Shown here piece by piece: positions 3,340 through 63,620 of a stretch of 64,000 nucleotides of DNA. The notes under the pieces are model-generated. The model was not told where the DNA came from. It saw only the letters and a list, made by a program, of their open reading frames with translations, and did not search any database. Positions within the stretch are counted from its first letter, which is position 1. Each line of letters begins with the position of its first letter. The stretch is from the NCBI GenBank assembly GCA_035548175.1, contig DASZTO010000073.1, forward strand, positions 581-64,580, in the 5' to 3' direction. Made by a program: the position numbers and the translations under genes. This DNA is from Phycisphaerae bacterium. Lineage in GTDB: Bacteria > Planctomycetota > Phycisphaerae > WQYP01.

Positions 3340-5358
3340 TCATGCCTCGACGCCCGCCGGCGCGCCCTGGCACGCATCCGCGGGCTCGAAGATTTCACGT
3401 CCGTCGGCCACCTCCACCGACCATCCCGCGCCGCACCTGCCGCAGGCCGCCGGGAGTATTTCCCGAGTTCCGCCGCAACGCGCACAGCGCTCTCTTCCGC
3501 GGCCGGTGTAGAGGCCCAGCATCACCACCACGCCGGCGGGCCCGAGCAGCAGATTCCCGACGATCCAGCCGCTGGTCGTGCCGGCGCCCATGCGATAGCG
3601 CCGCGCGACCCAGAACGTGACGGCGGCCGCCAGAACCGCGCCGGCCGCGATGCCTGCATCGAACACCTGGGCGAATTCCATCGTGCGAATGTCGAGCACC
3701 CGATCGAGGACCCACGTCGGGCACAGCGGGCGCGCCGCGAGGGGAAAGATCAAGCCGAACATCGCGGTCTCGGTGACCTTTGGGCTGCGATAATCCGGCT
3801 GGCGCGGAAACGCCGTTTCCCGCAGCAGCTTCCCGTCCTGGTCATACTCCCAGAGCGCGGCCTGCAGTTCGGGATGCGTCGGGAGCGGCTCGGTCTCGAG
3901 CAGCAGGTGGTGATTCGCGAGGATCGCCGGGGCGATCTCATAGGCCGCGGGATCGACGGACATGGGGACGTCAAACAGCGTTTCGCCGGTCGGCCGCAGC
4001 GCGTAGAGCCTGCGGCGCGTGCTGACGACGATGGCGGGATTCTGCGGCGGCGCGAGTTGGGCCGCATAGAGGACCGGGTCATCCTGCGCCGCCGTGAACA
4101 CCCGGCGCACCCGCCGCTGATCGAGTTCGATCCAATAGACCACAGAAGGAAAGGCAATGGCCCGGCCCATGGCGAGGGACGCCAGATTCAGGGGCGTTCC
4201 GGAAAATCGCTCCGTGGGCGCCGTGCCGACCGCGGAAAATCCGGCCGGACCGACGCTCCCGAGCTTGCGATGCGATACCGGATCGATCAACTCGATGAGC
4301 CGCTGGGGGACATCGTAGAGGGACAGGAAGGGCACCCGCACTCCCGGCGGCGCCACGGAGGACAACCTCGCGACGCCCGGAGTGGGGCTGCGATAGTCGT
4401 CGGACTCGAACTTACGGGCGGCCCATGGGAGCGCGGGCGGATCGACGAGGAAGGCGTTGAAGCGGACGAAAATTCCCGCATAGGCCGGGTCATTCGGATC
4501 GACGTGCTCATATTGCGGCAAGGGCTTTCCGGCGACATCGTCGAAGGCGAACGTGCGGTCGGCGTCGGCGATTGTTTCGGTGACGCGCACGATGTTTCCG
4601 TCGCGGTCGACCTGGTAATACTGCCAATGGCCGCCGACGTTGAAGCTGGTGCTCAGTCCCAGGATGAACATGCCGAGGGCGAGCGCGCCGGGATACATCA
4701 TGGCGCCGAGTGCGCCGCGCGTGACGGCCGGTCCGTCCATTTCGCCGTTGCTGGAGAAGACTCCCCATGCGGCGGTCGCCCCGATGGCCTGGATGGCGAG
4801 CAGGACGGCCGCCGCCGCCGCGAATCCGGGGATGAGGAGGTAGGCGGCGACGGTCCCAAAAACGGCCAGGCCCAGGGGAAGGAGGCGCGTGCCGTGCCAG
4901 CGTGCCCGCCGGAGCAGGAGCACCATACCGGCAAAGTAGTAACAGCCGGCGCTGAGGACGTCGGCGGTGAGGGGCAGGGCCATCCGCCACTGGAAGGGCA
5001 GGGCCACGTGTCCGGGCCAGGCCGCCCATGCCGCAGTGAGCGCGCAGGGAAGCCCCAGCGCCCCGTACAGGAGCCCCAGCCCGGCGGCGCACTTCGCGGC
5101 GAATATCCGGCCGCGGCGCACCGGGCGATGCACCACGAAGGCCCAGTTGTCCGGCCGCACCTCGAACATGGCCTGCGCCGCGCCCATCAGGAGCCCCGCG
5201 ATCGCCGCCAGAAAAGGGGTCGTCGCCTGGGCCAGCGCATACAGCAGCATCGCCGACGCATCGCGCATGCCATGCACGCAGATCGCCAGCAGCACCACGA
5301 AAATGACCGCCGCCCACTTGAGGTTTTCGCGCAGCTCGCGCACAAACACGCCCATCAT
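3340..5358 (-). CDS. ABC-2-type transporter permease with a large extracytoplasmic domain and a C-terminal cysteine zinc-ribbon tail
   Basis: The ATG at 5358 overlaps the ATPase stop as ATGA. About six N-terminal TM helices are followed by a roughly 350-aa soluble domain, one more TM, then CARCGGTREILPAACGRCGAGW. The upstream 5'-extension of the 895-aa ORF overlaps the ATPase gene and is rejected. Confidence 0.6.
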   Translation of the reverse strand: MMGVFVRELRENLKWAAVIFVVLLAICVHGMRDASAMLLYALAQATTPFLAAIAGLLMGAAQAMFEVRPDNWAFVVHRPVRRGRIFAAKCAAGLGLLYGALGLPCALTAAWAAWPGHVALPFQWRMALPLTADVLSAGCYYFAGMVLLLRRARWHGTRLLPLGLAVFGTVAAYLLIPGFAAAAAVLLAIQAIGATAAWGVFSSNGEMDGPAVTRGALGAMMYPGALALGMFILGLSTSFNVGGHWQYYQVDRDGNIVRVTETIADADRTFAFDDVAGKPLPQYEHVDPNDPAYAGIFVRFNAFLVDPPALPWAARKFESDDYRSPTPGVARLSSVAPPGVRVPFLSLYDVPQRLIELIDPVSHRKLGSVGPAGFSAVGTAPTERFSGTPLNLASLAMGRAIAFPSVVYWIELDQRRVRRVFTAAQDDPVLYAAQLAPPQNPAIVVSTRRRLYALRPTGETLFDVPMSVDPAAYEIAPAILANHHLLLETEPLPTHPELQAALWEYDQDGKLLRETAFPRQPDYRSPKVTETAMFGLIFPLAARPLCPTWVLDRVLDIRTMEFAQVFDAGIAAGAVLAAAVTFWVARRYRMGAGTTSGWIVGNLLLGPAGVVVMLGLYTGRGRERCARCGGTREILPAACGRCGAGWSVEVADGREIFEPADACQGAPAGVEA

Positions 5359-12443: not shown

Positions 12444-12704
12444 CAGAGCGGGGTGATTTGCGGTAAGGGTTTGTGGAGGTGAGGGTTGGGATGGAAATTT
12501 TTTGGGTTGCAGGCGCGCGCTGCGTGCCAGGTTGTGCGCGCGGCTGCGGAACCGCGGGTGGGATGGCGGCGTGGGGCGGTGGATGAGGGGTGGCGGCGCG
12601 GGTCAGGGGGAGCTGAGGAGTTCGATTTGGCGGCGGATTTCGTAGCGGGTGGGGGTTCCGGGTTGGGTGAGGGCGGGGTCTTTGCAGGGGCGTTCGAGGA
12701 CGAG

Positions 12705-12802
12705 GAATTAACCACGGAGGAGACGGAGAGCACGGAGGTCCGACGGCGACGCCCCCCTTACGACGACGTAAATGGCCACGAAAGGCACGAAAAACACGAA
12801 AG
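12705..12802 (+). repeat. Interspersed intergenic repeat, copy R1 (CACGGAG heptads plus TAAATGGCCACGAAAGGCACGAAAAACACGAAAG core)
   Basis: About 85% identical to 17124-17220. The GAATTAACCACGGAGGAGACGGAG head is shared with 23955-23988. The reverse-complement core matches 63565-63610. Confidence 0.7.
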
Positions 12803-12986
12803 TTGCGATGTGAAAAATGTTGCGGCGCGAAGAAATTGGCGCAGTAGTCATAGGAAAGGCAGGAGACGGATTGGTTTTGGAATGGTAGCGCGGGAGAGGC
12901 ACTTTTGGGAATGTTAAAAAAAGTATTGGGTTCCGTATCGGGGTCCGCAGGCGGTATGGGAGAATGGATTTATGGAGGATGCGACG

Positions 12987-16199: not shown

Positions 16200-16294
16200 G
16201 GGGGTCTCCGGAGCGAAAGGGGCATTATAGGGAGCGGGGCGGGTGGGGGCGATGCGGTGGGGTAATTGGTAAATAGTCATTGGTAATTGGGGGG

Positions 16295-17080: not shown

Positions 17081-17270
17081 ACGGTAAATGGCCACGAAAA
17101 ACCGGGCGCGGCGAAGCGCAAAAGATTAAACACGGAGCACACGGAGAGCACGGAGGAACGACGACGGTCTCCCCCCCAACGACGACGTAAATGGCCACGA
17201 AAGGCACGACAAGCACGAAAGACGGCGGACGGGACTTGTCCACGAATGCACACGAATTTACACGAATGGA
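17081..17270 (+). repeat. Interspersed intergenic repeat, copy R2 (the longest copy, with a CACGAATG tail)
   Basis: GATTAAACACGGAGCACACGGAGAGCACGGAGG...ACGACGACGTAAATGGCCACGAAAGGCACGACAAGCACGAAAG...TCCACGAATGCACACGAATTTACACGAATG. It contains two TAAATGGCCACGAAA cores, and the reverse complement of 63530-63620 matches its tail. Confidence 0.7.
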
Positions 17271-21159: not shown

Positions 21160-22326
21160 CTACGGGTTCCCTTGGGGGAGGTCGTGGAAGGATTTGGTGG
21201 TGGGGAGGGGCAAGGGGAGGCGTTCGAGGATTTTGAGGAGGCGGGAGGCGGCGTGGCCGTCGCCGTAGAGGTTTTTGCGTTGGGCGATTTTTTTGCGGAA
21301 GGGTTTGTTGGTGAGTGCGAAGCGGATGGCGGATTGGATGGGGCGGAGGGAGGCGGGCGAGACGCCCGCGGTACGAGACCAGGGGACGTCGAGGATGTTG
21401 GGGTTGCGTTCGCGGCCTTTCTGGCGGTCGCCGAGGTTGATGACGGGGAGGGCGAAGGAGGCGGCTTCGATGATGCCGGCGGAGGAGTTGCCGATGAGGA
21501 GCGAGGCCTGGGTGAGGAGCTGCCAGAAATCGGGTTGGGAGAGGGACATGGTGAGGGGGATTTTGGCGGCGGTGTAGGCACGGAGGATGCCGGTGTGGCC
21601 GGGGTCGTTGTTGGGGCCGATGGCGGTGAAGGGGATGTTGGCGGCGCGGAGGGCGCGGAGGAGGAGGGAGGTGCGTTTTTGTTCGAGGGCGTCGTCTGGG
21701 GAGGAGGGGTGGAGAAGGAGTAGGGCGGAAGGGTTTGACAAGGTGACAGGGTGACAAGGTGACGAGGTGAGGAAGGCGGCGAGGGTGTCGAGGGCGGGGG
21801 CGCCGATGACGTGGATCGTTTTGGGATCTTCGCCCATTTGTTGGATGCGTTGGGCGGCGCGATTGGTGGCGGGGAAGTGGCGGTGGGCGAGTTTGGTGAT
21901 GGCGTGGCGGATTTGTTCGTCCCAGGTGCCGGGTGCGGTTTCGCCGCCGTGGAGGTGGGCGATGGGGATGTGGGAGACGAGTGCGGCGTTTGCGGCGGCG
22001 AGCATTTCGAGGCGGTCGCCGAGGAGGAGGAGGAGGTCGGGTTTGAGGACGGCGAGTTCTGCGCCGAGCCTGGTGACGGCGTGTCCGAGTGATGCGGCGG
22101 GAGGATCGTCGGGACGGTACATGTCGACGACGGCTTCGATGGGGATGCCGGAAGCTTCGACGTCGCGGATGGTGTAGCCGAACTGCGGTTGGAGGTGCAT
22201 GCCGGTGACGATCAATTGGGGGCGGAGATTTTTGGATTTTTGGAGGGCGTGGAGGATGGGGGTCCAGATGCCGAATTCGGCGCGGGTACCGGTGAGGATA
22301 GCGATATTGCGAAGGGAACTAGCCAC
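21160..22326 (-). CDS. neuC: UDP-N-acetylglucosamine 2-epimerase (hydrolysing), NeuC type
   Basis: IAILTGTRAEFG, LIVTGMH, LLLGDRLEMLAAANAA, IPIAHLHGGE and HPVTL all match NeuC/SiaA. GTG start at 22326. Confidence 0.85.
   Translation of the reverse strand: MASSLRNIAILTGTRAEFGIWTPILHALQKSKNLRPQLIVTGMHLQPQFGYTIRDVEASGIPIEAVVDMYRPDDPPAASLGHAVTRLGAELAVLKPDLLLLLGDRLEMLAAANAALVSHIPIAHLHGGETAPGTWDEQIRHAITKLAHRHFPATNRAAQRIQQMGEDPKTIHVIGAPALDTLAAFLTSSPCHPVTLSNPSALLLLHPSSPDDALEQKRTSLLLRALRAANIPFTAIGPNNDPGHTGILRAYTAAKIPLTMSLSQPDFWQLLTQASLLIGNSSAGIIEAASFALPVINLGDRQKGRERNPNILDVPWSRTAGVSPASLRPIQSAIRFALTNKPFRKKIAQRKNLYGDGHAASRLLKILERLPLPLPTTKSFHDLPQGNP
21734..21770. repeat. Imperfect GGTGACAA octamer tandem array inside neuC; a 30-nt segment is 29/30 identical to 26184-26213
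   Basis: TTTGACAA GGTGACAG GGTGACAA GGTGACGA GGTGA. It is in frame and encodes TSSPCHPVTLS. Confidence 0.6.
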
Positions 22327-22365
22327 GAATGCTCACAAATGGACACGAATGAATGTAAATGATTC
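22321..22365 (+). repeat. Repeat-family fragment R3 (CACGAATG / CACAAATG words) in the neuB-neuC spacer
   Basis: GCCACGAATGCTCACAAATGGACACGAATGAATGTAAATG matches the tail of R2. Confidence 0.45.
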
Positions 22366-22368
22366 CGA

Positions 22369-23415
22369 TCAGGCGATGTCGTTGGGGGTGAGGGTGGTGT
22401 TGGCGGGGAGGGGACGGGTGAGTGTTTTGCCGAGGGTTTGTTGGTAGAGGGCGGCGGGGATGCCGGTGCCGGGGCGTTTGACGGTGAGCATGTCTTTGGT
22501 GAGGAGGGCGCCCTTGGGGAGGGGTTTGGTAGTGGTGAGGGATTGGCGGGTTTGTTGGCGGATTTGGCGTTCGCGGGGTTGGGGGGATTTTTCGTAGGGG
22601 CCGCGCATGGCGTGGGCGGTGGCGGCGAGGCGGATGTAGTCGGCGAGTTGGGGGGGGTCGAGAGAGGCGGCGTGGTCTGGGCCTTTGCGGGTGCGGTCGA
22701 GGGTGAGGTGCTTTTCGAGGACAGACGCGCCGGCGGCGACGGCGAGGGCGGCGGTGAGGGTTTCCATGGTGTGGTCGGAATAGCCGATGGGAATTTGCGG
22801 GTAGCGGTTACGCATGACGGTGATGGCGGCGAGGGTGGCGTGGTTGGGGGGCGTGGGGTAGCTGCTGACGCAGTGGAGGAGGATGGTGCGGTCGAGGGCT
22901 AGCGCATCGGCGAGCCAGCCGCGGGTGCGGTCGATTTCTTCGAGGTCGGCGGCGCCGGTGGAGAGGATGAGGGGGAGGTTGGTGGCAAGGGCGGCTTCGA
23001 GGAGGGGGAGATTAACGAGGTCGGGGCTGGCGAGCTTGATGGCGTCGACGTGCATGTCGACGCAGGCGGGGACGAGCTCGGGGGAGAAGGGGGTAACGAT
23101 GGCGGCGAGGTTGAGGGCGTGGGCGCGGGCGACGAGGGGGGCCATTTTTTCGGGGGGGAGTTCGAGGGGCTTGAGGAGGTCGTCTGCGCCGGCGCCGGAT
23201 TCCACGCTGGATTTCTGGTAGTCGACGAGGGCGGCGCTTTGGGCGAGGAGGCGGTCGGCTTCGAAGAGCTGGAATTTGACGGCGTGGGCGCCGGCGCGGT
23301 GGGCGGCGTCAACGAGCTGGGCGGCGATGTCGGGTGAGCCGTCGTGGTTGACGCCGATCTCGGCGAGGATGAAGGGCGGGCCGTCGCGGGTGATGTCGGT
23401 TGTTCTGATTTGCAT
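22369..23415 (-). CDS. neuB: N-acetylneuraminate synthase with a C-terminal sialic acid synthase antifreeze-like (SAF) domain
   Basis: ILAEIGVNHDGS, AVKFQLF, ILSTGAADLEEI, GYSDHT and a C-terminal SAF domain (LLTKDMLTVKRPGTGI). Confidence 0.9.
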   Translation of the reverse strand: MQIRTTDITRDGPPFILAEIGVNHDGSPDIAAQLVDAAHRAGAHAVKFQLFEADRLLAQSAALVDYQKSSVESGAGADDLLKPLELPPEKMAPLVARAHALNLAAIVTPFSPELVPACVDMHVDAIKLASPDLVNLPLLEAALATNLPLILSTGAADLEEIDRTRGWLADALALDRTILLHCVSSYPTPPNHATLAAITVMRNRYPQIPIGYSDHTMETLTAALAVAAGASVLEKHLTLDRTRKGPDHAASLDPPQLADYIRLAATAHAMRGPYEKSPQPRERQIRQQTRQSLTTTKPLPKGALLTKDMLTVKRPGTGIPAALYQQTLGKTLTRPLPANTTLTPNDIA

Positions 23416-23444
23416 GGCTGCTTAACACAAAGGAGACGGAAAAA

Positions 23445-23530
23445 TTGTCCACAAAAGCACACGAACGGACACGAATTTATCTAATTTGGCGTCTATTTGT
23501 GTTCATTTATGAGCATTTGTGGACGCGTGG
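23445..23530 (+). repeat. Repeat-family fragment R4 spanning the neuA 3' end and the neuA-neuB spacer
   Basis: TTGTCCACAAAAGCACACGAACGGACACGAATTT...TTTGTGTTCATTTATGAGCATTTGTGG. The last 11 codons of neuA (TRPQMLINEHK) are encoded by repeat sequence. Confidence 0.45.
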
Positions 23531-24332
23531 GGTTTTGCTGGGCGCGAAGCATGGCTTCGGCGAGGTAGAGGTCTTTTTCGGTGTCGATGTCGACGGAGTC
23601 TTCGGGGGAGACGATAAGGCCGCGGCGATCGGCGCCGAGGAAGGCGTGGGGGTCTTCGGGGTGGTTTTCGGCTTGCATGAGGACGCCGGTTTTCATGACG
23701 TAGACGGCGCCGGTGGGGGAATAGAGCGGGGGGAGGTCCTGGCGGCGGAAGATGGTGTTGGGGATGTGCTTTTGGATTTGATTTGAGTTGGGGTTGAGGT
23801 CGAACATCCAGTAGGGGTGGAATTTGCCCACAGATGCGATGGTTTGGACGGAGTCGGCGCCGGTGTCGAGCAACATTTGGATGCAGCGGTCGATCATGTT
23901 GTCCGTGCGGATGGGGACGTTGCCGTAGAGCATGACGATGGCGCGCGGAAGATCAGAATTAACCACGGAGGACACGGAGGGCACGGAGATTGGATTTTTG
24001 ATTTTCTCTGCCTCCGTGTTCTCCGTGGTTTCAAAGGAATGCGGATAGAGCGAGCGGACGGCGTGGCGGAGGACGGGGTCGGTGGCGCTGGCGGCGGTCG
24101 CGAGCTCGGGGGGGCGGAGGAGGGTTTCAAAGCCTTCGGAGTGGGCGAGGGCGAGGATGTCGGGGGAATCGCTGCTGACGATGGTGCGGGTGATAAGGGT
24201 GGATTGGCGGGCGTGGTCGAGGGTGTAGGCGAGGACGGGTTTGCCCAGGAGGGGCCGGAGGGATTTGTTGGGCAGGCCGACGGAGCCGGCGCGGGCCATG
24301 ATGACGGCGAGGATGTGAGGCGCGGTGGCCAT
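23493..24332 (-). CDS. neuA: N-acylneuraminate cytidylyltransferase (CMP-Neu5Ac synthetase) carrying an in-frame palindromic-repeat insertion
   Basis: ILAVIMARAGSVGLPNKSL...GKPVLAYTL...IVSSDSPDI...AIVMLYGNVPIRT (the QPTSPLR-equivalent motif). ATG at 24332. A roughly 30-aa loop (FETTENTEAEKIKNPISVPSVSSVVNSDL) is encoded by repeat R5. Confidence 0.8.
   Translation of the reverse strand: MATAPHILAVIMARAGSVGLPNKSLRPLLGKPVLAYTLDHARQSTLITRTIVSSDSPDILALAHSEGFETLLRPPELATAASATDPVLRHAVRSLYPHSFETTENTEAEKIKNPISVPSVSSVVNSDLPRAIVMLYGNVPIRTDNMIDRCIQMLLDTGADSVQTIASVGKFHPYWMFDLNPNSNQIQKHIPNTIFRRQDLPPLYSPTGAVYVMKTGVLMQAENHPEDPHAFLGADRRGLIVSPEDSVDIDTEKDLYLAEAMLRAQQNPTRPQMLINEHK
23955..24030. repeat. Palindromic repeat-family copy R5 inserted in frame within neuA
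   Basis: Arms AACCACGGAGGACACGGAGGGCACGGAG and CTCTGCCTCCGTGTTCTCCGTGGTT flank an AT-rich 17-nt loop. The head is about 90% identical to R1 12705-12738. Confidence 0.65.
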
Positions 24333-24334
24333 GG

Positions 24335-24724
24335 TTAACGAGGTCCAGGAAATGCGACGAAGTTTTCGACAAATACCAGAAATAGAGCGAAGGCGAGAGC
24401 ACAGAGGAGATGAAAGAGGCTGATGAGGATAGCGGCGATGGGAAAGGCGAAGCCGTGCCATTGATCGGGGTGTTTGCGAATTTGGTAAATAGTGAGGACC
24501 GCGATGATCAGGCACGCCAGGGGAGCGACAATGAATCCCGTTATCGCAATGATCGTGAAGGCAGTGGAGGCGCCCTCGGGAAGCAGATACGTCGAGAGGT
24601 AAGCGAGTTCAGGAACGAAGGCGAAAATGAAACAGGGGATGGCGCGGGGATGTCGCCGGGAGCGCGTGGTTGCGTAGGGGAGGAGGGGGTCAGGGGCGAG
24701 GGGTTGTGAGGGTTGAGAAGTCAT
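24335..24724 (-). CDS. Small integral membrane protein of unknown function
   Basis: The ATG at 24724 overlaps the upstream stop as ATGA. 129 aa with three predicted TM helices. Confidence 0.5.
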   Translation of the reverse strand: MTSQPSQPLAPDPLLPYATTRSRRHPRAIPCFIFAFVPELAYLSTYLLPEGASTAFTIIAITGFIVAPLACLIIAVLTIYQIRKHPDQWHGFAFPIAAILISLFHLLCALAFALFLVFVENFVAFPGPR

Positions 24725-26400
24725 GCGCGGTGCCACTCCGTGCAGGTGGTGCAGGGGGTGGGGTAGGAGGCGTCGGCGTGCTGTTGGCGGAGGGTGGTGA
24801 GGGCGGGGCTGGTCCAGAGCTGGGCGAGGGAGTGGGAATCGATGTTGCCCAGGGGCAGGGTGTCGTGAGGGTCCTGGTCGCAGGGGACGGCGGTGCCGTT
24901 GGAGCGCAGGAGGAGGCGGTCCCAGAGGCGGCGGCAGGGGCGGCGTTTGGGGGGGGCCATGTCGATGACGGCGGTGGGCGGGAGTGTGCCGGCGCGGGTG
25001 GTGGGAGAATCGATGACGGCCCAACCGGCCTGGGAGATCCAGGTATCGAAGAAGGGTTCGAGTTCGGGGATGGTGTCGCGGACTTTGAGGAGGCGCGGGA
25101 TGACGAGGGGAAGGCCGTGGTTGGCGCGGGTGGCGGCGGCGAGTTGGAGGAGGTTGGCGGAGAATTTTTCGTGGAAGGAGGTGTTGGAGACTTTGTTGTA
25201 GGTTTGGGGCGTGTGGCCGTAGGTGGTGATGGTGAGGATGTCGAGGAAGTTTTCGGAGATGGCGGTGAGGAGGGGGTCGAGGTTGTCGGCGAGGAGGTCG
25301 GTTTGGAGGCAGATGCTGAGGGGTTTGGCGTTGCGGGCGGCGCGGAGGACGGCGAGGAGGTGGGGATAGAGGAGGGGGTCGCCGTCGCCGGCGAAGGTGA
25401 GGAGGAGGTCGTCGGGGAAGTGTTGTGAGGCGAGCCAGCGGGTCCAGTGGACGGGGTCGAGGTGGCCGCGGGCCTGGCGGATGATTTGCGGGACGGAGCC
25501 GGGGGGGTTGGTGAGGCGGTTGGGGGTGAGTTCGATTTCGAGTTCGCGCGGGGCGGTGTGGGTGCGGGAGAAGTCGGTGACGCCGGGGGCGACGGAGCGT
25601 GCGGCTTCGAGGGCGAGAGCGGCGGGGGAGATGGAAATGACTCCTGACCCCTTTTCTCGTGAAGGGGAAGTAGAAATGACTCCTGACCCCTTTTCTGGCC
25701 AGGCGCGGTCGGTGTCGAGGAGGAAGCGGTTGGGGATTTTGGAGAGGGCGGGGTCGACTTGCATGCAGGCGTCGCGGATGAGGGTGTCGAACTGGGGGTT
25801 GGCGGGGTCGTAGGCGAGGAGCTGCCAGGGCATGACTTTTTTGTCGCCCATTTCGAGGGCGATGTCGGCGCGGAGCATGAAGCCGGTGAGGCCGGGGGCG
25901 GCGGGGGTGTAGGTGATGCGCATTTCGTGGTTTTTGTGGAGGTGGTGATGGAGGAGGGCTTCGGTGAGGGGGACGTCGAGGAAGGCGGCGTGGGAGTGGA
26001 TGGCGAGGATGTGGTCGGCGTTGAAGGTGCGCGCGGCGTGGGCGATGGCGGCGGGATGGTACTCCTCGTCGAAGACGGTGAACTGGCCGGCGCCGCCGCG
26101 CCAGGAGAGGAGGTTCCAGGGACGGGCGGCGCGGATGCGGGCGGAGATGGCTTCGGGGCGGGCGATGAGCGGTGTGGTGGACACGGTGACAAGGTGACAA
26201 GGTGACGAGGTGAATTGTTGGGCGAGGGGGAGTTGGGGTTCGGGGGCGGCGAGGAGGATGTGGGTGAGGCCATGGACTTGCTGGAGGCGGTCGAGGACGT
26301 GAGTGAGGATGGGTTTTCCGGCGAGGGGGTCGCGGAGGCGGGAGCGCGTGCCGATGGCGGTTGTGTCGAAATCGCAGCAGATGACGGCGAGGATGTTCAT
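24721..26400 (-). CDS. Fusion of a NeuA/SpsF-like cytidylyltransferase domain with a degenerate radical-SAM-like core (no CxxxCxxC) and a SPASM-like Cys-rich C-terminus
   Basis: N-terminus MNILAVICCDFDTTAIGTRSRLRDPLAGKPILTHVLDRL is nucleotidyltransferase-like. The middle has ELEIELTPNRLTNPP where radical-SAM enzymes carry CxxxCxxC, plus a GGEPLL-like FAGDGDPLLYP. The C-terminus is PCRRLWDRLLLRSNGTAVPCDQDPHD...LGNID...PCTTCTEW. It contains a perfect 39-nt tandem duplication and the shared octamer segment. Confidence 0.5.
   Translation of the reverse strand: MNILAVICCDFDTTAIGTRSRLRDPLAGKPILTHVLDRLQQVHGLTHILLAAPEPQLPLAQQFTSSPCHLVTVSTTPLIARPEAISARIRAARPWNLLSWRGGAGQFTVFDEEYHPAAIAHAARTFNADHILAIHSHAAFLDVPLTEALLHHHLHKNHEMRITYTPAAPGLTGFMLRADIALEMGDKKVMPWQLLAYDPANPQFDTLIRDACMQVDPALSKIPNRFLLDTDRAWPEKGSGVISTSPSREKGSGVISISPAALALEAARSVAPGVTDFSRTHTAPRELEIELTPNRLTNPPGSVPQIIRQARGHLDPVHWTRWLASQHFPDDLLLTFAGDGDPLLYPHLLAVLRAARNAKPLSICLQTDLLADNLDPLLTAISENFLDILTITTYGHTPQTYNKVSNTSFHEKFSANLLQLAAATRANHGLPLVIPRLLKVRDTIPELEPFFDTWISQAGWAVIDSPTTRAGTLPPTAVIDMAPPKRRPCRRLWDRLLLRSNGTAVPCDQDPHDTLPLGNIDSHSLAQLWTSPALTTLRQQHADASYPTPCTTCTEWHRA
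25634..25711. repeat. Perfect 39-nt in-frame tandem duplication (24/24 identical core) of lower GC content
   Basis: GAAATGACTCCTGACCCCTTTTCT at 25634-25657 and again at 25673-25696. It encodes EKGSGVISTSPSR / EKGSGVISISPAA. Confidence 0.7.
26184..26213. repeat. GGTGACAA octamer array inside the cytidylyltransferase/rSAM-like gene; 29/30 identical to the neuC segment
   Basis: CGGTGACAAGGTGACAAGGTGACGAGGTGA. It is in frame and encodes TSSPCHLVTVS. Confidence 0.6.
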
Positions 26401-28520
26401 CGTGCGGCTCCGGCGACTTCGCGCGGCCAGGGCTTGTTTTGTTGGAGGGCGTCGCGCTGGCGGTGGAGGCGGGCGAGGGCTTCGTCGAGGACGGCGAGGA
26501 GGCGTTCGGCGCCGGTTTGCAGGTTCTGCACGTAATCGATGTCGCGCAGGAGCTGGCGTTTCTGGCGGTCGAGGGAATCGGCCTTGGCGGTTTTGACGGA
26601 GAGGTCGGCGTTGAAGCGGCGGAGCTCGCCGATGGTGTTGAGGAAGACGACCATGTCAAAGGTCTGGGGATCGGTGTTGACCTTGGCGCGCTGGCGATCA
26701 ATTTCGGCGAAGAGGCGGTGCATGGCGGCGGGGTCGGTCTGCTTTTCGATCATCTCGTGGAGCAGGGGGATGGTGCGCTCGCAGGTTTCCTTCATGTCAG
26801 CGGCTGAGAGGCGGCGGGATTCGAGGGCGGCGATGGTGGTTTCGAGGGCGCGGGGTTGGTCGGTCGTCCAGGCTTTCCAGGGAGCGTTTGCCGGTAATGG
26901 GTAACTGGTAATTGGTAATTGGCAGTATTGGTCGATGGCGTCGCGCAGGGTCATGCGGGTGACGTGCTGTTTTTTGGCGCCGCCTTCGGTGGCGTCGATG
27001 ACGGTGTGGCGGCTGGCGGCGAAGTCGCGTTCGAATTGCTGGAGGTAGACGAAGAATTGTTCTTCGGTGTACATGGGGTGGCCGTGGATGTCGGGGATTT
27101 TGCGGAGGATGGTTTTGGAGCGGGCGATGCGTTCCCACTCCTTGGTTTCGAGGGTGTTGAAGCGGGAGAGTTCGGGCGACCACGTTTCGTGGATGGCGGT
27201 GCCGGGCTTGTAGTAGAGGCCGTCGACGAAGCCGAGGTCCTGGCCGATGAGGATGATGGGGTTGCAGCCGAGGAATTCGGCGAGGTAGAAGGAGAGGTGG
27301 GCGACGGTGGCGCCGGCTTTGAGACCGGCGCGGGTGGGGAAGGCGTCGCGGAGGAGTTTGGCGGCGAAATCGTTGTGCAGCAGCGTGATCCCCCCCCCAC
27401 CGCCGGAGCCGGAAAAAGTGTCGAGGACGTTCCAGTTGGCTTTGGCTTCAGCGACGAGGTGGAGGCGGTGCAGCGGGCCGCCGGCGCTTTCTTCGAGGTT
27501 TTCGAAGAAGCGTGTGGAGACGGTGTTGTAGTCGAGGGAGGTGACGAAGTCGGGCTCGATGCCGGCGGCGAGGAGGGGTTTGAGCATCGTCTGGACGGCG
27601 ATGATGACGGCTTTCCGGCCACGGCCGTCTTGGTCGCCTTTGATTTCGTGGAGCAGGTGCATGTTTTTCTGGAGGCTGGGGCCGGCGGCGACGAGGATGG
27701 CGGGAACGTTGGGGTAGGCGTTTTGCAGGAGGTCGAGGGTGGGAGTCGTGGCGTAGCGGCCGATGTTGTTGGCGACGTTGCGGCAGGTGGCGACGTTGTT
27801 GAGCATGAGGGTGAGGAAGCCGGTGCGGGTGAAGGAGACGAACTCGGTGATGAGTTTCTGGAAGGCGGAGAAGAAGCCGGCGGCATCGGCCTGGATGCTG
27901 GCGGGGTGGGCGGCGAAGAGGGTTCCCGCGCCGGCGGTGAAGAGGACGGAGCGGGGTTCAAGGCGGTCGACGAGGTGGCCGCGATCGAGGGAGGTGAAGA
28001 TCAGGAGGCGTGCGGTGCGGAGGGGTTCGGCGAGATCGGCGACGGAGAGAGCGGCTTTGAGGAGGGGGAGGTTGGGTTCGGCGACGATGAGGAGTGCGTC
28101 GTGGGGCATGCGGTCGAGGAGGGCGCGGATGTGGTGGCCGAGGCCGAAGCCGGAGACGGCGACGACGTAGCGGTCTTCGCAGGCGACGGCGGCGGCCCAG
28201 TTTTCGGCTTCGTGAAGGGGGCGATAGCGGGAGTGGAGGTAGACCTGGCGGCCCCCCGGCCCCCCCCCACCGGTCGGGGCGGCGAGGGGCCCGGGTCCCG
28301 ATTGCGCTGGGGGAGTTGTCATGACGCGGACGGTCGGGTATCCATCCTTAGCGGTCTCGAGGACCGGCACATCTGCGGGATGCACCGCGTCGATCGCCAT
28401 GGCGAGGCGGGCATCGGTCTGAAAAAGCGCCGAAAGGTTGCGAACATAGGTGGCGTGTGCGTCCGTAAGGAAGGGCGCAGGCGTATCGGGCGCGGCGGCG
28501 AGGGCAGCGGCGTCGGTCAT
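26397..28520 (-). CDS. Motility-accessory-factor (Maf) / DUF115 (MptE-like) family protein; putative nonulosonic-acid glycosyltransferase
   Basis: DUF115 core NVPAILVAAGPSLQKNMHLLHEI...AVIIAVQTMLKPLLAAGIEPDF with a long helical C-terminus. The ATG at 28520 is preceded by AGGAGG; the stop overlaps the next gene as ATGA. Confidence 0.7.
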   Translation of the reverse strand: MTDAAALAAAPDTPAPFLTDAHATYVRNLSALFQTDARLAMAIDAVHPADVPVLETAKDGYPTVRVMTTPPAQSGPGPLAAPTGGGGPGGRQVYLHSRYRPLHEAENWAAAVACEDRYVVAVSGFGLGHHIRALLDRMPHDALLIVAEPNLPLLKAALSVADLAEPLRTARLLIFTSLDRGHLVDRLEPRSVLFTAGAGTLFAAHPASIQADAAGFFSAFQKLITEFVSFTRTGFLTLMLNNVATCRNVANNIGRYATTPTLDLLQNAYPNVPAILVAAGPSLQKNMHLLHEIKGDQDGRGRKAVIIAVQTMLKPLLAAGIEPDFVTSLDYNTVSTRFFENLEESAGGPLHRLHLVAEAKANWNVLDTFSGSGGGGGITLLHNDFAAKLLRDAFPTRAGLKAGATVAHLSFYLAEFLGCNPIILIGQDLGFVDGLYYKPGTAIHETWSPELSRFNTLETKEWERIARSKTILRKIPDIHGHPMYTEEQFFVYLQQFERDFAASRHTVIDATEGGAKKQHVTRMTLRDAIDQYCQLPITSYPLPANAPWKAWTTDQPRALETTIAALESRRLSAADMKETCERTIPLLHEMIEKQTDPAAMHRLFAEIDRQRAKVNTDPQTFDMVVFLNTIGELRRFNADLSVKTAKADSLDRQKRQLLRDIDYVQNLQTGAERLLAVLDEALARLHRQRDALQQNKPWPREVAGAAR

Positions 28521-28583
28521 GGGACCTCCTGCCGGTGCAGGCGGGGGGCGGAAAGTTGACGGCGGCATCTTTCAAGGGGCAGC

Positions 28584-30639: not shown

Positions 30640-32601
30640 CTACCCCTCTTTGGCGGCAGCGCCAAGATAGGCGGCGATGACGGCGGGATTTCGGCGGATC
30701 TGGTCGGGGGTTCCGGTGGCGATGGTTTTGCCGTAATCGAGGACGACGATGCGTTCGCAGACGCCCATGATGACTTTCATGTCGTGTTCGATGAGGAGGA
30801 TGGCGAGTCCGAAGCGTTGGCGGAGGGAGCGGATCATGTCCATGAGGGAGCGTTTTTCGGTGGGGTTCATGCCTGCGGCGGGCTCGTCGAGGAGGAGGAT
30901 GCGGGGTCGCGTGGCGAGGGCGCGGGCGATTTCGAGGCGTCGCTGGTCGCCGTAGGAGAGGGAGCTGGCGCAGGCGTCGGCGAGGTGTTCGAGGTGGAAG
31001 AGGGCGAGGTATTCGAGGGCGTTTTTGCGGGACTTGTCTTCTTCGCGGAAGAAGGCGGGGGTGCGGAGGATGGCGGCGGGGATGCCTTGCTTGTGGTGCA
31101 TGTGCTGGGCGATCTGGACGTTGTCGAGGACGGAGAGATTGGCGAAGAGGCGGATGTTCTGGAAGGTGCGGGCGACGCCGCGCTTGGAGATGGAGTGGGG
31201 GCGGAGGTGGCGGGCGGAGTGGTCGGCGATGGCGACACGTCCGGCGGTGGGTCGGTAGACGCCGGTGAGGACGTTGAAGACGGTGGTTTTGCCCGCGCCG
31301 TTGGGGCCGATGAGACCGACGAGTTCGCCGGGTGCGAGTGCGAGGGAGAAGTCGTCGACGGCTTTGAGGCCGCCGAATTGCATGGTGACATCGCGCGCGG
31401 AAAGAAGCGGAGTGCTGGGTGTTGCGTGTTGAGGACTGAGGGGAGAGGGCTGAGTCCTGAGTTCTGAATCCTGAGTTGTGGGGGGTCGGCGGCTATTGAG
31501 GAAGGGGGCGAAGAGGTCGGTGATTTCGTAGCGGCCGAAGATGCCGTGGCGCATGAAGAGCATGGCGAGGATGATGAGGAGGGCGTAGGCGACGGGCCGC
31601 CATCGTTCGGTGATGTCGGTGGGGACGAGGGTGTTGCGTTCGAGGATGGGGGGTATGACGGTGAGGAAGATGGCGGCGAGCGCGGAGCCGGTGATGGAGC
31701 CTTGTCCGCCGAGGATGACGTAGAGGACGATCATGGTGGAATACATGAAGCGGTAGCTGTTTGGGTTGAGGTCGCCGTACTGGCTGTAGAGTGCTCCGGC
31801 GAGTCCGGCGAGAGCGGCGCCGATGACGAAGGCGGCGATTTTGTAGCGGGTGGTGGGGATGCCGACGGCTTCGGAGGCGATGGGGTCTTCGCGGATGGCC
31901 AGGAGCGCCCGGCCGGTGGTGGAGTACTTGATGTTGCGGACGATGAGGATGGTGACCAGGACGGCCAGGAGCATCCAGAAGGAGGAGATGAAGTAGAGGG
32001 TGTTGTTGTTGTAGGCGATGACGTCGGGGCCGAAGGGGGTGTTTTTGCCGCCCTCGGCCCACCAGAGTTGTCGCATGTTGTCGATGCGGAGACCGAAGGT
32101 GCGGCCGAGGTATTCGCTGTTGCCGATGACGGTGGCGACGATTTCGCCGAAGCCGAGGGTGGCGATGGCGAGGTAATCGCCGCGGAGGCGGAGGGTGGGG
32201 AGTCCGACGAGCAGGCCGAGGAAAGCGCAGAGGAGCATGGCGGCGAGCATTCCGGCGACGGCCATGCAGGTGAAGGAGGCGGTGACGGAGAGGCCGAGGT
32301 GGGCGTGCCAGAAGGTGAGTTGTGGGAGGAAGAAGCCGGGTTTTCCGGTGATGACGGCGGCGGTGTAAGCGCCGACGGCCATGAATCCGGCGTGGCCGAG
32401 GGAGAATTGTCCGGTGAGGCCGAGGATGAGGTTGAGGCTGACGGCGAGGATGACGGCGATGCAGCAGTCGTAGAAAGTGTTGTGGGTGAGGGAGGACATG
32501 AGGAGGCGGGGATTGTCGAGGGCTGGGGAGACGGCGGCGATGAGGCCGATGAGGACGGCGATTGTCGCCAGGTGAAACCAGGAGCGCGTCGCGGGGGTCA
32601 T
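30640..32601 (-). CDS. In-frame fusion of branched-chain amino-acid ABC permease (LivM-like) and ATPase (LivG-like)
   Basis: The N-terminal 360 aa is a polytopic permease. The C-terminal 255 aa has GLIGPNGAGKTT, LSYGDQRRLEIARAL and LLLDEP. They are joined by the PTTQDSELRTQPSPLSPQHATPSTP linker, encoded by CTGAGTCCTGAGTTCTGAATCCTGAGTTGTG repeats at 31450-31480. No livF-like second ATPase follows. Confidence 0.8.
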   Translation of the reverse strand: MTPATRSWFHLATIAVLIGLIAAVSPALDNPRLLMSSLTHNTFYDCCIAVILAVSLNLILGLTGQFSLGHAGFMAVGAYTAAVITGKPGFFLPQLTFWHAHLGLSVTASFTCMAVAGMLAAMLLCAFLGLLVGLPTLRLRGDYLAIATLGFGEIVATVIGNSEYLGRTFGLRIDNMRQLWWAEGGKNTPFGPDVIAYNNNTLYFISSFWMLLAVLVTILIVRNIKYSTTGRALLAIREDPIASEAVGIPTTRYKIAAFVIGAALAGLAGALYSQYGDLNPNSYRFMYSTMIVLYVILGGQGSITGSALAAIFLTVIPPILERNTLVPTDITERWRPVAYALLIILAMLFMRHGIFGRYEITDLFAPFLNSRRPPTTQDSELRTQPSPLSPQHATPSTPLLSARDVTMQFGGLKAVDDFSLALAPGELVGLIGPNGAGKTTVFNVLTGVYRPTAGRVAIADHSARHLRPHSISKRGVARTFQNIRLFANLSVLDNVQIAQHMHHKQGIPAAILRTPAFFREEDKSRKNALEYLALFHLEHLADACASSLSYGDQRRLEIARALATRPRILLLDEPAAGMNPTEKRSLMDMIRSLRQRFGLAILLIEHDMKVIMGVCERIVVLDYGKTIATGTPDQIRRNPAVIAAYLGAAAKEG

Positions 32602-33569
32602 CAGACTTTCTCCGGGACGGCTTTGCCGAAGATGCCCTCGGGACGGACGAGGAGGACGAGGATGAGGATGAGGAAGGCGGCGGCGTCCTGGTACTCGCTC
32701 CAGCCGAAGTAGGCGACGAAGGCTTCGACGAGGCCGAGGATAATGCCGCCGACGGCCGCGCCGGGGATGTTGCCGATGCCTCCGATGACGGCGGCGATGA
32801 AGGCCTTGAGGCCGGGGATGACGCCCAGGAGCGGCGTGATGGAGCGATAGCGGAAGCCGTAGATCACCCCCCCTACCGCGGCGAGCGCGCTGCCGAGGAT
32901 GAAGGTGAAGGAGATGATGCGGTCGATGTGGATGCCCATGAGGCGTGCGGCGTCGTAGTTGACGGAAACGGCGCGCATGGCTTTGCCGGTGCGGGTGAAA
33001 CGGACGATGTAAAAGAGGAGTGCGAGGCAGAAGAGCGTGGCGCCGAAGGTGAGCAGGTCGTTGCCGGAGACGCTCAGGCCGGTGGCGTTTTTGATGGAGA
33101 GGATGGCCTGGTCAAATTCGTAACGGCCGATGGCGATTTTGGGGACGGCGGTGGGGGTGGGACCGAAGAAGCGGTTGCCGTGGAAGTGCCATTCGATCTG
33201 GAGGAGGTATTCGAGGAAGAGGGAGACGCCGATGGCGGTGATGAGGGAGGCGAGGCGGGAGGCTTTTCGCAAGGGGCGGTAGCAGAGGCGTTCGATGGCG
33301 TAACCGAGTGCGCCGCAGGCGAGCATGGCGGCGAGCATGGAGAGGGCGGCGGTGGCGACGGACTGGTCGGCGACATCGGAAAGGCCGAGGCGTTGCTGAA
33401 TGAAGCGAGTGGTGTAGCAGCCGACGAAAGCGCCGACCATGAAGACGTCGCCGTGAGCGAAGTTGATGAGTCGGAGGACGCCGTAGACCATGGTGTAGCC
33501 GAGGGCGATGAGCGCGTAGGTGGAACCGACGGCGAGGCCGTTGAGCAACTGTTGCAGCAGATCGGTCAT
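32601..33569 (-). CDS. Branched-chain amino-acid ABC transporter permease (LivH-like)
   Basis: LLNGLAVGSTYALIALGYTMVYGVLRLINFAHGD and nine TM helices. Confidence 0.85.
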   Translation of the reverse strand: MTDLLQQLLNGLAVGSTYALIALGYTMVYGVLRLINFAHGDVFMVGAFVGCYTTRFIQQRLGLSDVADQSVATAALSMLAAMLACGALGYAIERLCYRPLRKASRLASLITAIGVSLFLEYLLQIEWHFHGNRFFGPTPTAVPKIAIGRYEFDQAILSIKNATGLSVSGNDLLTFGATLFCLALLFYIVRFTRTGKAMRAVSVNYDAARLMGIHIDRIISFTFILGSALAAVGGVIYGFRYRSITPLLGVIPGLKAFIAAVIGGIGNIPGAAVGGIILGLVEAFVAYFGWSEYQDAAAFLILILVLLVRPEGIFGKAVPEKV

Positions 33570-58377: not shown

Positions 58378-58462
58378 CCATTGCCCATTGCCAAATTGCC
58401 CATTGCCAATTGACGGGACGCTCCCTTCTCAATTGGCAATCGGCAATCGGCAATCGGCAATT
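58378..58462. terminator. Composite inverted repeat built from ATTGCC / GGCAAT hexamer arrays between convergent genes; bidirectional terminator candidate
   Basis: GCCATTGCCCATTGCCAAATTGCCCATTGCCAATTG ... CAATTGGCAATCGGCAATCGGCAATCGGCAATT. It sits exactly between the stop at 58374 (+) and the stop at 58465 (-). Confidence 0.55.
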
Positions 58463-63410: not shown

Positions 63411-63620
63411 GGAACCATCCACAAATCCACACAAATCCCCACAAATGCGCTGCGCCCAATCCACCTCCCCACCGTAAAGATCAACCCCGCCTCTCAAAAA
63501 AAACATCGCCGCATTCCCCGCCCGCCCGCATGAAAGCCCACATCATTTGTGAACATTTGTGTAAATTTGTGGATACTTCCCGTCGTCCTTTCGTGTCCTT
63601 CGTGTTCTTCGTGGCCATTT
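63411..63620 (-). repeat. Repeat-family copy R6 (reverse orientation; CACAAAT words plus the TAAATGGCCACGAAG core)
   Basis: The reverse complement of 63565-63610 is AAATGGCCACGAAGAACACGAAGGACACGAAAGGACGACGGGAAG. CCACAAATCCACACAAATCCCCACAAATG occurs at 63419-63447. Confidence 0.6.

Follow-up and report, generated by a model that had tools for sequence, protein, structure and literature searches.

Octamer arrays shared by neuC and a SPASM-domain gene of a Phycisphaerae operon are probably copies of a dispersed short tandem repeat

Several classes of small repeats are known that resemble the elements described here. Cyanobacterial genomes carry short tandemly repeated repetitive (STRR) sequences, reportedly described by Mazel et al. 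in 1990, and the Rickettsia palindromic elements (RPEs) of Ogata et al. (2000) are said to insert in frame at surface-exposed positions of proteins, the function of which is kept. Poly-G tracts occur in the maf genes of Campylobacter. Also described are the long simple sequence repeats (LSSRs) with units of 5-11 nt (Mrazek et al. 2007, summarised in PMC4679880), the direct repeats of the heptamer TAACTGA found in Beggiatoaceae, Cyanobacteria, and Bacteroidetes (MacGregor 2015, PMC4679880), the GGGNATC and GGGGAYT heptamers of Xanthomonas and Nostoc, which prefer four units (Rehm et al. 2015, PMC4692102), the REP and REPIN elements, small palindromic repeats that spread within genomes (PMC3116915), and the simple sequence repeat (SSR) contingency loci of Haemophilus, with tetranucleotide to heptanucleotide repeats (PMC2651432, PMC8262952). 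Here, we analyze a nearly identical segment shared by two genes, neuC and a gene encoding a SPASM-domain protein, in 64,000 nt of DNA from a Phycisphaerae bacterium (GCA_035548175.1, contig DASZTO010000073.1, positions 581 to 64,580; hereafter the window). We conclude that the shared segment probably represents two solo copies of a dispersed short-tandem-repeat element with the unit GGTGACAA, which appears as TTGTCACC when the coding strand is read.

The first array (21736..21770, minus strand) comprises ~4.4 units of TCACCTTG on the coding strand of neuC (21160..22326, minus strand), which encodes a hydrolysing UDP-GlcNAc 2-epimerase of 388 aa (PF02350, 6.7e-67; TIGR03568, 2.5e-100). The second (26179..26213, minus strand; ~4.2 units) lies in a spiro-SPASM-like gene (24721..26400, minus strand) whose 559-aa product combines an N-terminal nucleotidyltransferase-like part with a SPASM domain at the C-terminus (PF13186, 2.4e-11); the match of this protein to the spiro-SPASM model TIGR04321 was partial, at 91 bits with a cutoff of 250. 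Both arrays are translated in frame, as (L)TSSPCHPVTLS at residues 186-197 of NeuC and as (F)TSSPCHLVTVS at residues 63-74 of the SPASM protein, with TSSPCHPVTLS itself at 187-197 and TSSPCHLVTVS at 64-74. A preliminary description of this DNA had placed the shared segment in frame on the minus strand of both genes, at 21741-21770 and 26184-26213, and we found the sequences there as described; the identity, given as 29 of 30 nt, came to 28 of 30 upon recounting, and to 32 of 35 nt over the longer span (21736-21770 and 26179-26213). Tandem Repeats Finder called both sites as period-8 tandem arrays, with 4.4 copies and 88% matches in neuC and 4.2 copies and 92% matches in the SPASM gene, which bears out the octamer array that the description had proposed as one alternative.

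The likeness between the two copies is confined to the arrays, and their flanks are unrelated. The 21-mer GGTGACAAGGTGACGAGGTGA had two exact matches in the window, where 0.00 were expected from 100 dinucleotide-preserving shuffles. The copies are 4.4 kb apart and in the same orientation, and each is a single arm without an inverted partner; the calculated RNA fold energies (0 for the neuC array and -2.9 kcal/mol for the SPASM array) were no better than those of shuffles. The coding strand of the operon genes (21160-28568) is C-rich and G-poor, with a GC skew of -0.42 and with 69-79% C and 7-14% G at third codon positions. Since 4 of 11 and 5 of 11 codons in the two arrays end in C, the arrays run contrary to the codon usage of their hosts.

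The identity is supported as one of DNA, not forced by a shared protein motif. The HPVT residues of NeuC had been taken for a conserved epimerase motif. In an alignment of 25 homologues, however, the invariant histidine and near-invariant proline are H206-P207 in LLLHPSS, which align with QHPVV of an archaeal homologue, whereas the array encodes H192-P193-V194-T195, 14 residues further upstream, within a variable, unalignable stretch whose length and sequence both differ among homologues. None of the 24 remaining NeuC homologues in the alignment has the TSSPCH/HPVT peptide, not even the one with 81% identity. With the array-encoded residues off the invariant pair and the peptide missing from these homologues, a conserved motif was rejected as an explanation. 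Among the SPASM homologues aligned, the peptide at residues 64-74 is present only in the window and in the syntenic operon of the sister genome GCA_035545015.1 (L001), and more distant homologues are 4 residues shorter at this site; TSSPCH is ancestral to neither family. AlphaFold2 (AF2) models place the NeuC array at the end of a helix (178-188) and in a coil (189-200), ahead of a strand (201-204), and the SPASM-protein array in a coil (62-71) between a helix (54-61) and a strand (72-77), with a predicted local distance difference test (pLDDT) score of ~78. Both peptides are thus predicted to lie in connecting, variable loops. The window copies encode no functional motif.

A scan for GGTGACRRGGTGACRRGGTGA, with one genome per species, returned at least 120 loci. 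Among the matches listed, 52 are from Chloroflexota, 30 from Planctomycetota (including the isolate Zavarzinella formosa DSM 19928), 12 from Bacteroidota, 6 from Longimicrobia, 5 from Cyanobacteria, 4 from Actinomycetota, and the remainder from other groups. The pattern was also present in 59 IMG/VR viral contigs (L130-L188), some with several arrays or inverted pairs; these contigs could be vehicles between phyla or misclassified host DNA. Arrays range from 3 to 17 units, and at about one third of the loci listed, a forward array is followed by a reverse array within 150 nt. Stop-free open reading frames (ORFs) of at least 250 aa contain 51% of the octamer arrays, compared with 80% of random positions; the arrays are depleted from long ORFs, yet far from excluded. 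Long octamer arrays include one of 12.4 units in intergenic DNA (L123, 3586-3684) and one of 17 units (L090, 5137-5270), while those in coding DNA have about 4. Several of the scanned contigs begin or end inside octamer arrays, and long arrays therefore probably break short-read assemblies. A literature search for 16-mers of the octamer and for the encoded peptides yielded no matching paper, and a protein search with (LSPCHLVT)x5, probably limited by composition filtering, returned 3 tiny hypothetical proteins.

The element can sit inside genes because its TTGTCACC strand lacks stop codons in every frame. In (GGTGACAA)n, each of the frames meets a TGA within 21 nt, while (TTGTCACC)n has no stop in any frame and encodes the cyclic peptide LSPCHLVT; it is the latter orientation that the coding strand carries in both window copies. 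Hairpins of forward and reverse octamer arrays were found in frame in genes for MnmG/GidA (L100, 5255-5353, Phycisphaerales), HypF (L105, 4413-4557, Gemmataceae), and MoeA (L074, ~3360-3440, Chloroflexota), where they form insertions of 30-45 aa relative to the Pfam profiles. Likewise, three homologues of the SPASM protein carry LSPCHLVT-type peptides in a disordered linker at approximately residues 240-275, two of them together with GDKVTRRQG, the peptide encoded by the opposite strand of the repeat. The linker DNA in L002 consists of (AAGGKGAC) x6.5, a loop of ~20 nt, and a perfect (TCACCTTG) x4.6, all in frame; that in L123 of (TGACAAGG) x4.4, a loop, and (TCACCCTG) x4.2; and that in L125 of a solo arm. 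The corresponding RNA hairpins are stable, at -71 kcal/mol for L002 and -53 kcal/mol for L123, with z-scores of about -10. In each of the five in-frame hairpins examined, the one forward-arm unit that would otherwise read TGA is altered by a point change, giving AGA in L002, L123, and L105, TGG in L100, and GAA in L074. Proteins appear to absorb such insertions through the stop-free orientation combined with a one-unit fix of TGA.

Arrays of other short units are common in the same operon. We ran Tandem Repeats Finder on six syntenic operons (the window, L001, L002, L123, L125, and L127), and each contained 4-17 arrays with units of 6-10 nt, in genes as well as in spacers, with an array in nearly every intercistronic spacer. 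Typically, arrays of 7- and 8-mers have ~4.3 units, and those of 9- and 10-mers ~2.8 units. Array density was 0.61/kb in operon genes, 0.12/kb in flanking genes, and 1.31/kb in intergenic DNA (units of 7, 8, and 10 nt in five related genomes; Fisher p = 1e-4, with orthologous arrays counted repeatedly). The NeuC linker holds TCACCTTG in the window and TTCATCG in L123 (x4.4) and L127 (x3.4, with a compensating indel); in L001, the sister genome with 81% identity, it is 10 aa longer and holds an unrelated G-rich palindrome after the same TTC CTC boundary. Depending on the genome, the N-terminus of the cytidylyltransferase contains units of AGAAGCC, TTCAGCA, CAGCCCT, or TCATCGC, and the SPASM linker contains octamer hairpins, a solo arm, a 23-nt element, or a CATGGGCG...CGCCCATG palindrome. 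One permissive site, then, hosts different units in different genomes.

One of these sister arrays belongs to the same element class and lies in frame in the Maf/PseD-like gene (26893..26922, minus strand), where CCAATTA x4.3 encodes CQLPITSYPLP. It has counterparts in L001 (9475-9508), L127 (5635-5664), and L125 (9479-9508). Although written in rare AT-ending codons, the array is identical at 33 of 33 positions between L001 and L127, in genes that are 72.8% identical (chance ~3e-5), and therefore points to homogenisation or selection acting on the nucleotide sequence. The L125 array is homogenised to CCAATCA, and L123 has a non-repeat sequence of equal length.

Movement could be traced for a related hairpin of ~105 nt with tandem 8-mer arms, composed of AAGGCACT x4.5, a 36-nt loop, and CCTCAGTG x4.5, which L123 and L127 have in common, including the loop. 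In L123 (8686-8790), Maf contains it as a clean insertion of 38 aa that four orthologues lack, and the same hairpin is found inside an ABC-transporter gene of L127 (337-443). Sequence comparison of this element indicates that the related class of array hairpins is mobile.

The histories of the two window copies differ. The SPASM array has an orthologue of the same length in L001 (10187-10216), identical at 29 of 34 positions, with 5 substitutions and no indel. Because this orthologous array is present, the SPASM copy predates the split from L001; since then, it has drifted by substitution only, with a constant number of units. It is 85% identical between the window and L001, and the gene as a whole is 91.8% identical. 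The neuC copy has no counterpart in L001 or in any other orthologue, so that insertion polymorphism is present at orthologous sites, with the neuC copy only in the window and the SPASM copy in both the window and L001. From this distribution, the SPASM copy is the older. The NeuC linker of L001 may be what is left of an octamer array into which a palindrome was nested; its DNA proved unalignable with that of the window. The last full unit of both window copies is GGTGACGA, a variant that accounts for 4% of 506 units, and for 2% of last units, at the 120 other loci listed; the exact 21-mer GGTGACAAGGTGACGAGGTGA occurs at 2 of these loci. In addition, both window copies read TCG at a position where L001 reads TTG. 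Given the shared rare unit, the window copies resemble each other more than family members drawn at random would, and they probably derive from one another or from one local source, and if one was copied from the other, the direction is likely to have been from SPASM to neuC.

These data bear on two accounts that take up ideas of the preliminary description. One is a direct exchange between neuC and the SPASM gene, by non-allelic gene conversion or copying, that would involve no wider repeat family. The proximity, common orientation, and 32/35 identity of the copies favor such an exchange, as do the rare GGTGACGA at the same position in both and the TCG that sets them apart from L001. Conversion, however, would have lacked any homologous flank to guide it: the copies stop matching at the array boundaries, and the two hosts are not related proteins. 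The proposed transfer from neuC into the other gene also has its timing reversed, given that the SPASM copy is shared with L001 and the neuC copy is not. Finally, a private exchange between two genes is not needed, because the same array occurs at 120 or more loci in several phyla and elsewhere in the same operon of other genomes, which makes a third-party source equally possible. We consider an exchange of this kind unlikely. The other account is a contingency switch, in which slipped-strand mispairing of 8-nt units would reversibly shift the frame of neuC and the SPASM gene and toggle flagellin glycosylation. Several features favor a switch: a unit of 8 nt is not divisible by 3, both tracts are located within ORFs of an operon for surface glycans, and arrays of frame-shifting units are ~5-fold denser in operon genes than in flanking genes (0.61/kb versus 0.12/kb). 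Unit numbers also shift over evolutionary time, as seen for the NeuC-linker heptamer (4.4 in L123, 3.4 in L127), and the Maf heptamer underwent a concerted change of unit in L125. The window tracts, however, are not the long, perfect tracts of contingency loci. They have 4.2-4.4 imperfect units (88-92% matches), whereas intergenic relatives reach 12-17 units; between the SPASM tract and its L001 orthologue there are 5 substitutions and 0 indels; all six operons are in frame at every array; and unit number is unchanged in four near-identical assembly pairs (window/L129, L123/L124, L125/L126, and L127/L128). Two flank-anchored, variable-gap metagenome scans for length variants, one of the window neuC site and one of the L127 NeuC heptamer site, returned no match. 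Octamer arrays are also found in frame in the housekeeping genes for MnmG, HypF, and MoeA, in which switching would be hard to rationalise. Phase variation thus received no direct support; as an explanation of the arrays it seems quite improbable, and switching at the two window tracts is unlikely.

Two further explanations were considered. The arrays could be functional RNA or DNA cis-elements kept by selection, either as a periodic site for a regulator or as clustered rare codons by which translation is slowed at domain boundaries. This would fit the nucleotide conservation of the Maf array despite its rare AT-ending codons (33/33 in 73%-identical genes), the recurrence of arrays in nearly all intercistronic spacers of the operon, and the consistent array size of ~4 units or 25-35 nt, a number also favored by published heptamers (PMC4692102). 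The window octamers, on the other hand, are not conserved, as the neuC copy is lineage-specific and the SPASM copy is 85% identical in a gene that is 92% identical; the unit sequence at a given site differs between genomes; and an Rfam scan of the whole window at gathering thresholds gave no match. We also know of no protein that binds these arrays, and we regard a selected cis-element as very unlikely. Convergence through extreme codon bias and low-complexity composition, in turn, might be suspected from the C-rich, G-poor coding strand (GC skew -0.42; 69-79% C at third positions) and from the many weak G-rich repeat families that the repeat finder reported. It is contradicted by the shuffles, in which zero 21-mer matches are expected, by codons that run against the bias (4-5 of 11 ending in C), and by the recurrence of the identical unit across phyla. 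On these three grounds, chance was rejected, and we hold it to be extremely improbable.

The dispersed-repeat reading thus remains the one that we favor, and several points weigh against it. The window copies are single arms and not hairpins, and they add little length, with 4 extra residues in the SPASM protein and about none in NeuC, so that they do not by themselves demonstrate a simple insertion. The Maf insertion of L123 showed no target-site duplication, and no mobilising enzyme was found, the window genes having not been screened for transposases. Within this genome, the copy number and consensus of the family refer to the 64 kb of the window. Moreover, if the arrays are neutral relics, both the 33/33 identity of the Maf heptamer and the fivefold array density in the operon are left unexplained; together, these two features hint at homogenisation, selection, or slippage.

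With these points in mind, we propose that the many arrays with 7-10-nt units that occupy intergenic spacers and structurally permissive loops and linkers in this Phycisphaerae lineage arrive by insertion or by ectopic copying, as was shown for the related array hairpin. The window copies lie in loops of this kind in NeuC and the SPASM protein and are tolerated there, and at four imperfect units they would be effectively stable rather than switching. A broader and more speculative possibility, which we put forward only tentatively, is that the octamer and its sister arrays of 7-10-nt units are arms of a new class of tiny mobile hairpin that crosses phyla. Such elements would be copied by an unknown mechanism, perhaps borne by phages, and would recolonise permissive loops and be repaired into frame; they may make the operon unusually mutable, with slippage as a low-frequency form of contingency.

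Besides the two octamer arrays, the window contains several further elements of this kind. The neuA/PseF-like gene carries an in-frame hairpin of 9-mer arrays (ACCACGGAG AACACGGAG ... CTCCGTG x3) at 23958..24042 on the minus strand, which encodes TTENTEAEKIKNPISVPSVSSV and has a fold energy of -38.9 kcal/mol (z = -7.7). The Pfam CTP_transf_3 match stops at residue 144, just upstream of this hairpin, by which the cytidylyltransferase domain is interrupted. The end of L129, an independent Logan assembly, coincides exactly with the repeat, and octamer and sister arrays probably explain breaks in metagenomic assemblies at such sites. Within the SPASM-protein linker, two copies of a 20-23-nt dispersed element, GAAAAGGGGTCAGGAGTCATTTC, lie in frame at 25635..25693 on the minus strand and encode EKGSGVIS twice; single copies are present at the same linker in L001 (10774-10793) and L127 (7067-7086). 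This linker is predicted to be disordered, with AF2 pLDDT <50 for residues 237-256. The L001 linker also contains a CATGGGCGTCCCGCCCATG palindrome that encodes HGRPAHD.

Between neuB and neuC lies an intergenic 10-mer array, CATTCGTGAC x2.8 (22324..22351, minus strand), with related arrays at 17241-17268 and 63544-63571. Composite intergenic elements of 9-10-mer arrays were observed at 12700-12810, 17125-17270, 22324-22351, and 63420-63613; they are built of CTCCGTG-type, CTTTCGTG-type, and CATTCGTG/CATTTGTG-type units and often end in GGCCATTTA or GGTTAAT. Their orientation relative to transcription is constant, including in the intercistronic spacers of the operon in all six genomes. A degenerate CCAATTA array is found at 16261-16290, between a lipoprotein-like ORF and a purQ-like gene. 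At 58378-58461, adjacent heptamer arrays of CCATTGC (x4.9) and CAATCGG (x4.6) form an imperfect inverted pair, and CTGAGTC x3.9 lies in frame at 31450-31476 in a permease/ABC-type ORF (30640-33111).

The host operon further comprises, all on the minus strand, neuB (22369-23415), the gene for the PseF/NeuA-like cytidylyltransferase (23493-24515), and the gene for the Maf/PseD-like MptE protein (26397-28568). Judged by homology of its genes, the neuC-neuB-cytidylyltransferase-SPASM-Maf/PseD locus is predicted to be a nonulosonic-acid flagellin-glycosylation operon. NeuC is 100% identical to P0001 of a Phycisphaerae metagenome-assembled genome, and the SPASM protein is 100% identical to P0121; an identical contig is obtained from run SRR12170512. 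The gene set consists of homology-supported ORFs and the calls delivered with the loci, as a caller based on GC content at third codon positions miscalled several genes, including the SPASM gene. A promoter and terminator scan of the operon gave nothing above shuffles. Between 12000 and 38000 of the window, the plus strand has a GC skew of +0.3 to +0.5, owing to which the coding strand of the operon is very G-poor; the sign is reversed from ~52000. This bias in strand composition is also seen in L001, L123, and L125, is weaker in L127, and is absent from L002.

What had looked like an epimerase motif copied between genes as a phase switch is better told as a case of small dispersed repeats within coding sequence. 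A single 8-nt unit makes arrays and hairpins in Chloroflexota, Planctomycetota, Bacteroidota, Cyanobacteria, and viral contigs, and the octamer family offers a tractable case for how very small repeats move. For annotators, it carries a warning: peptides such as LSPCHLVT or GDKVTRRQG mark loops derived from repeats and not motifs.

When compared with SSR contingency loci, the arrays share non-triplet units inside ORFs of a locus for flagellin and surface-glycan modification. The window tracts are, however, much shorter and imperfect, with no length polymorphism seen, and the octamer family extends to housekeeping genes and to intergenic DNA of many phyla. The GGGNATC and GGGGAYT heptamers are G-rich, and their preference for four units has been explained by G-quadruplex formation (PMC4692102), whereas the arrays here have about four units without G-tracts. 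Closer parallels exist with TAACTGA, which has a patchy distribution that suggests horizontal spread without an evident mechanism, and which has stops in all frames one way while the other orientation occurs inside ORFs, mostly at the protein periphery (PMC4679880). Besides its different unit, TAACTGA differs in clustering just upstream of start codons (PMC4679880), and in-frame hairpins in catalytic domains have not been described for it.

Like STRR and LSSR sequences, the arrays consist of 7-8-nt tandem units with many dispersed copies per unit, mainly intergenic, sporadic across lineages, and without known function; one unit occurs at many unrelated loci, preferentially in non-coding DNA (1.31/kb in intergenic DNA versus 0.12-0.61/kb in genes). 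They differ from STRR sequences in that the unit is the octamer GGTGACAA and not one of the STRR1-3 heptamers and in that the hosts are Planctomycetota, Chloroflexota, and others, and from both classes in that octamer arrays often form inverted hairpin pairs, with copies in frame inside conserved enzymes. The in-frame octamer hairpins in MnmG, HypF, MoeA, and the SPASM linker are reminiscent of RPEs. Measured against RPEs, REPINs, and miniature inverted-repeat transposable elements, the window copies vary in presence at orthologous sites and lack inverted hairpin arms. Unlike in RPEs and REPINs, the arms here are made of tandem 7-9-nt units, the window copies are single arms, and the element crosses phyla; unlike for REPINs, no RAYT-like gene was identified among window genes that were not screened for transposases. 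By analogy, the arrays may best be described as STRR/LSSR-like repeats that insert in frame in the manner of Rickettsia palindromic elements.

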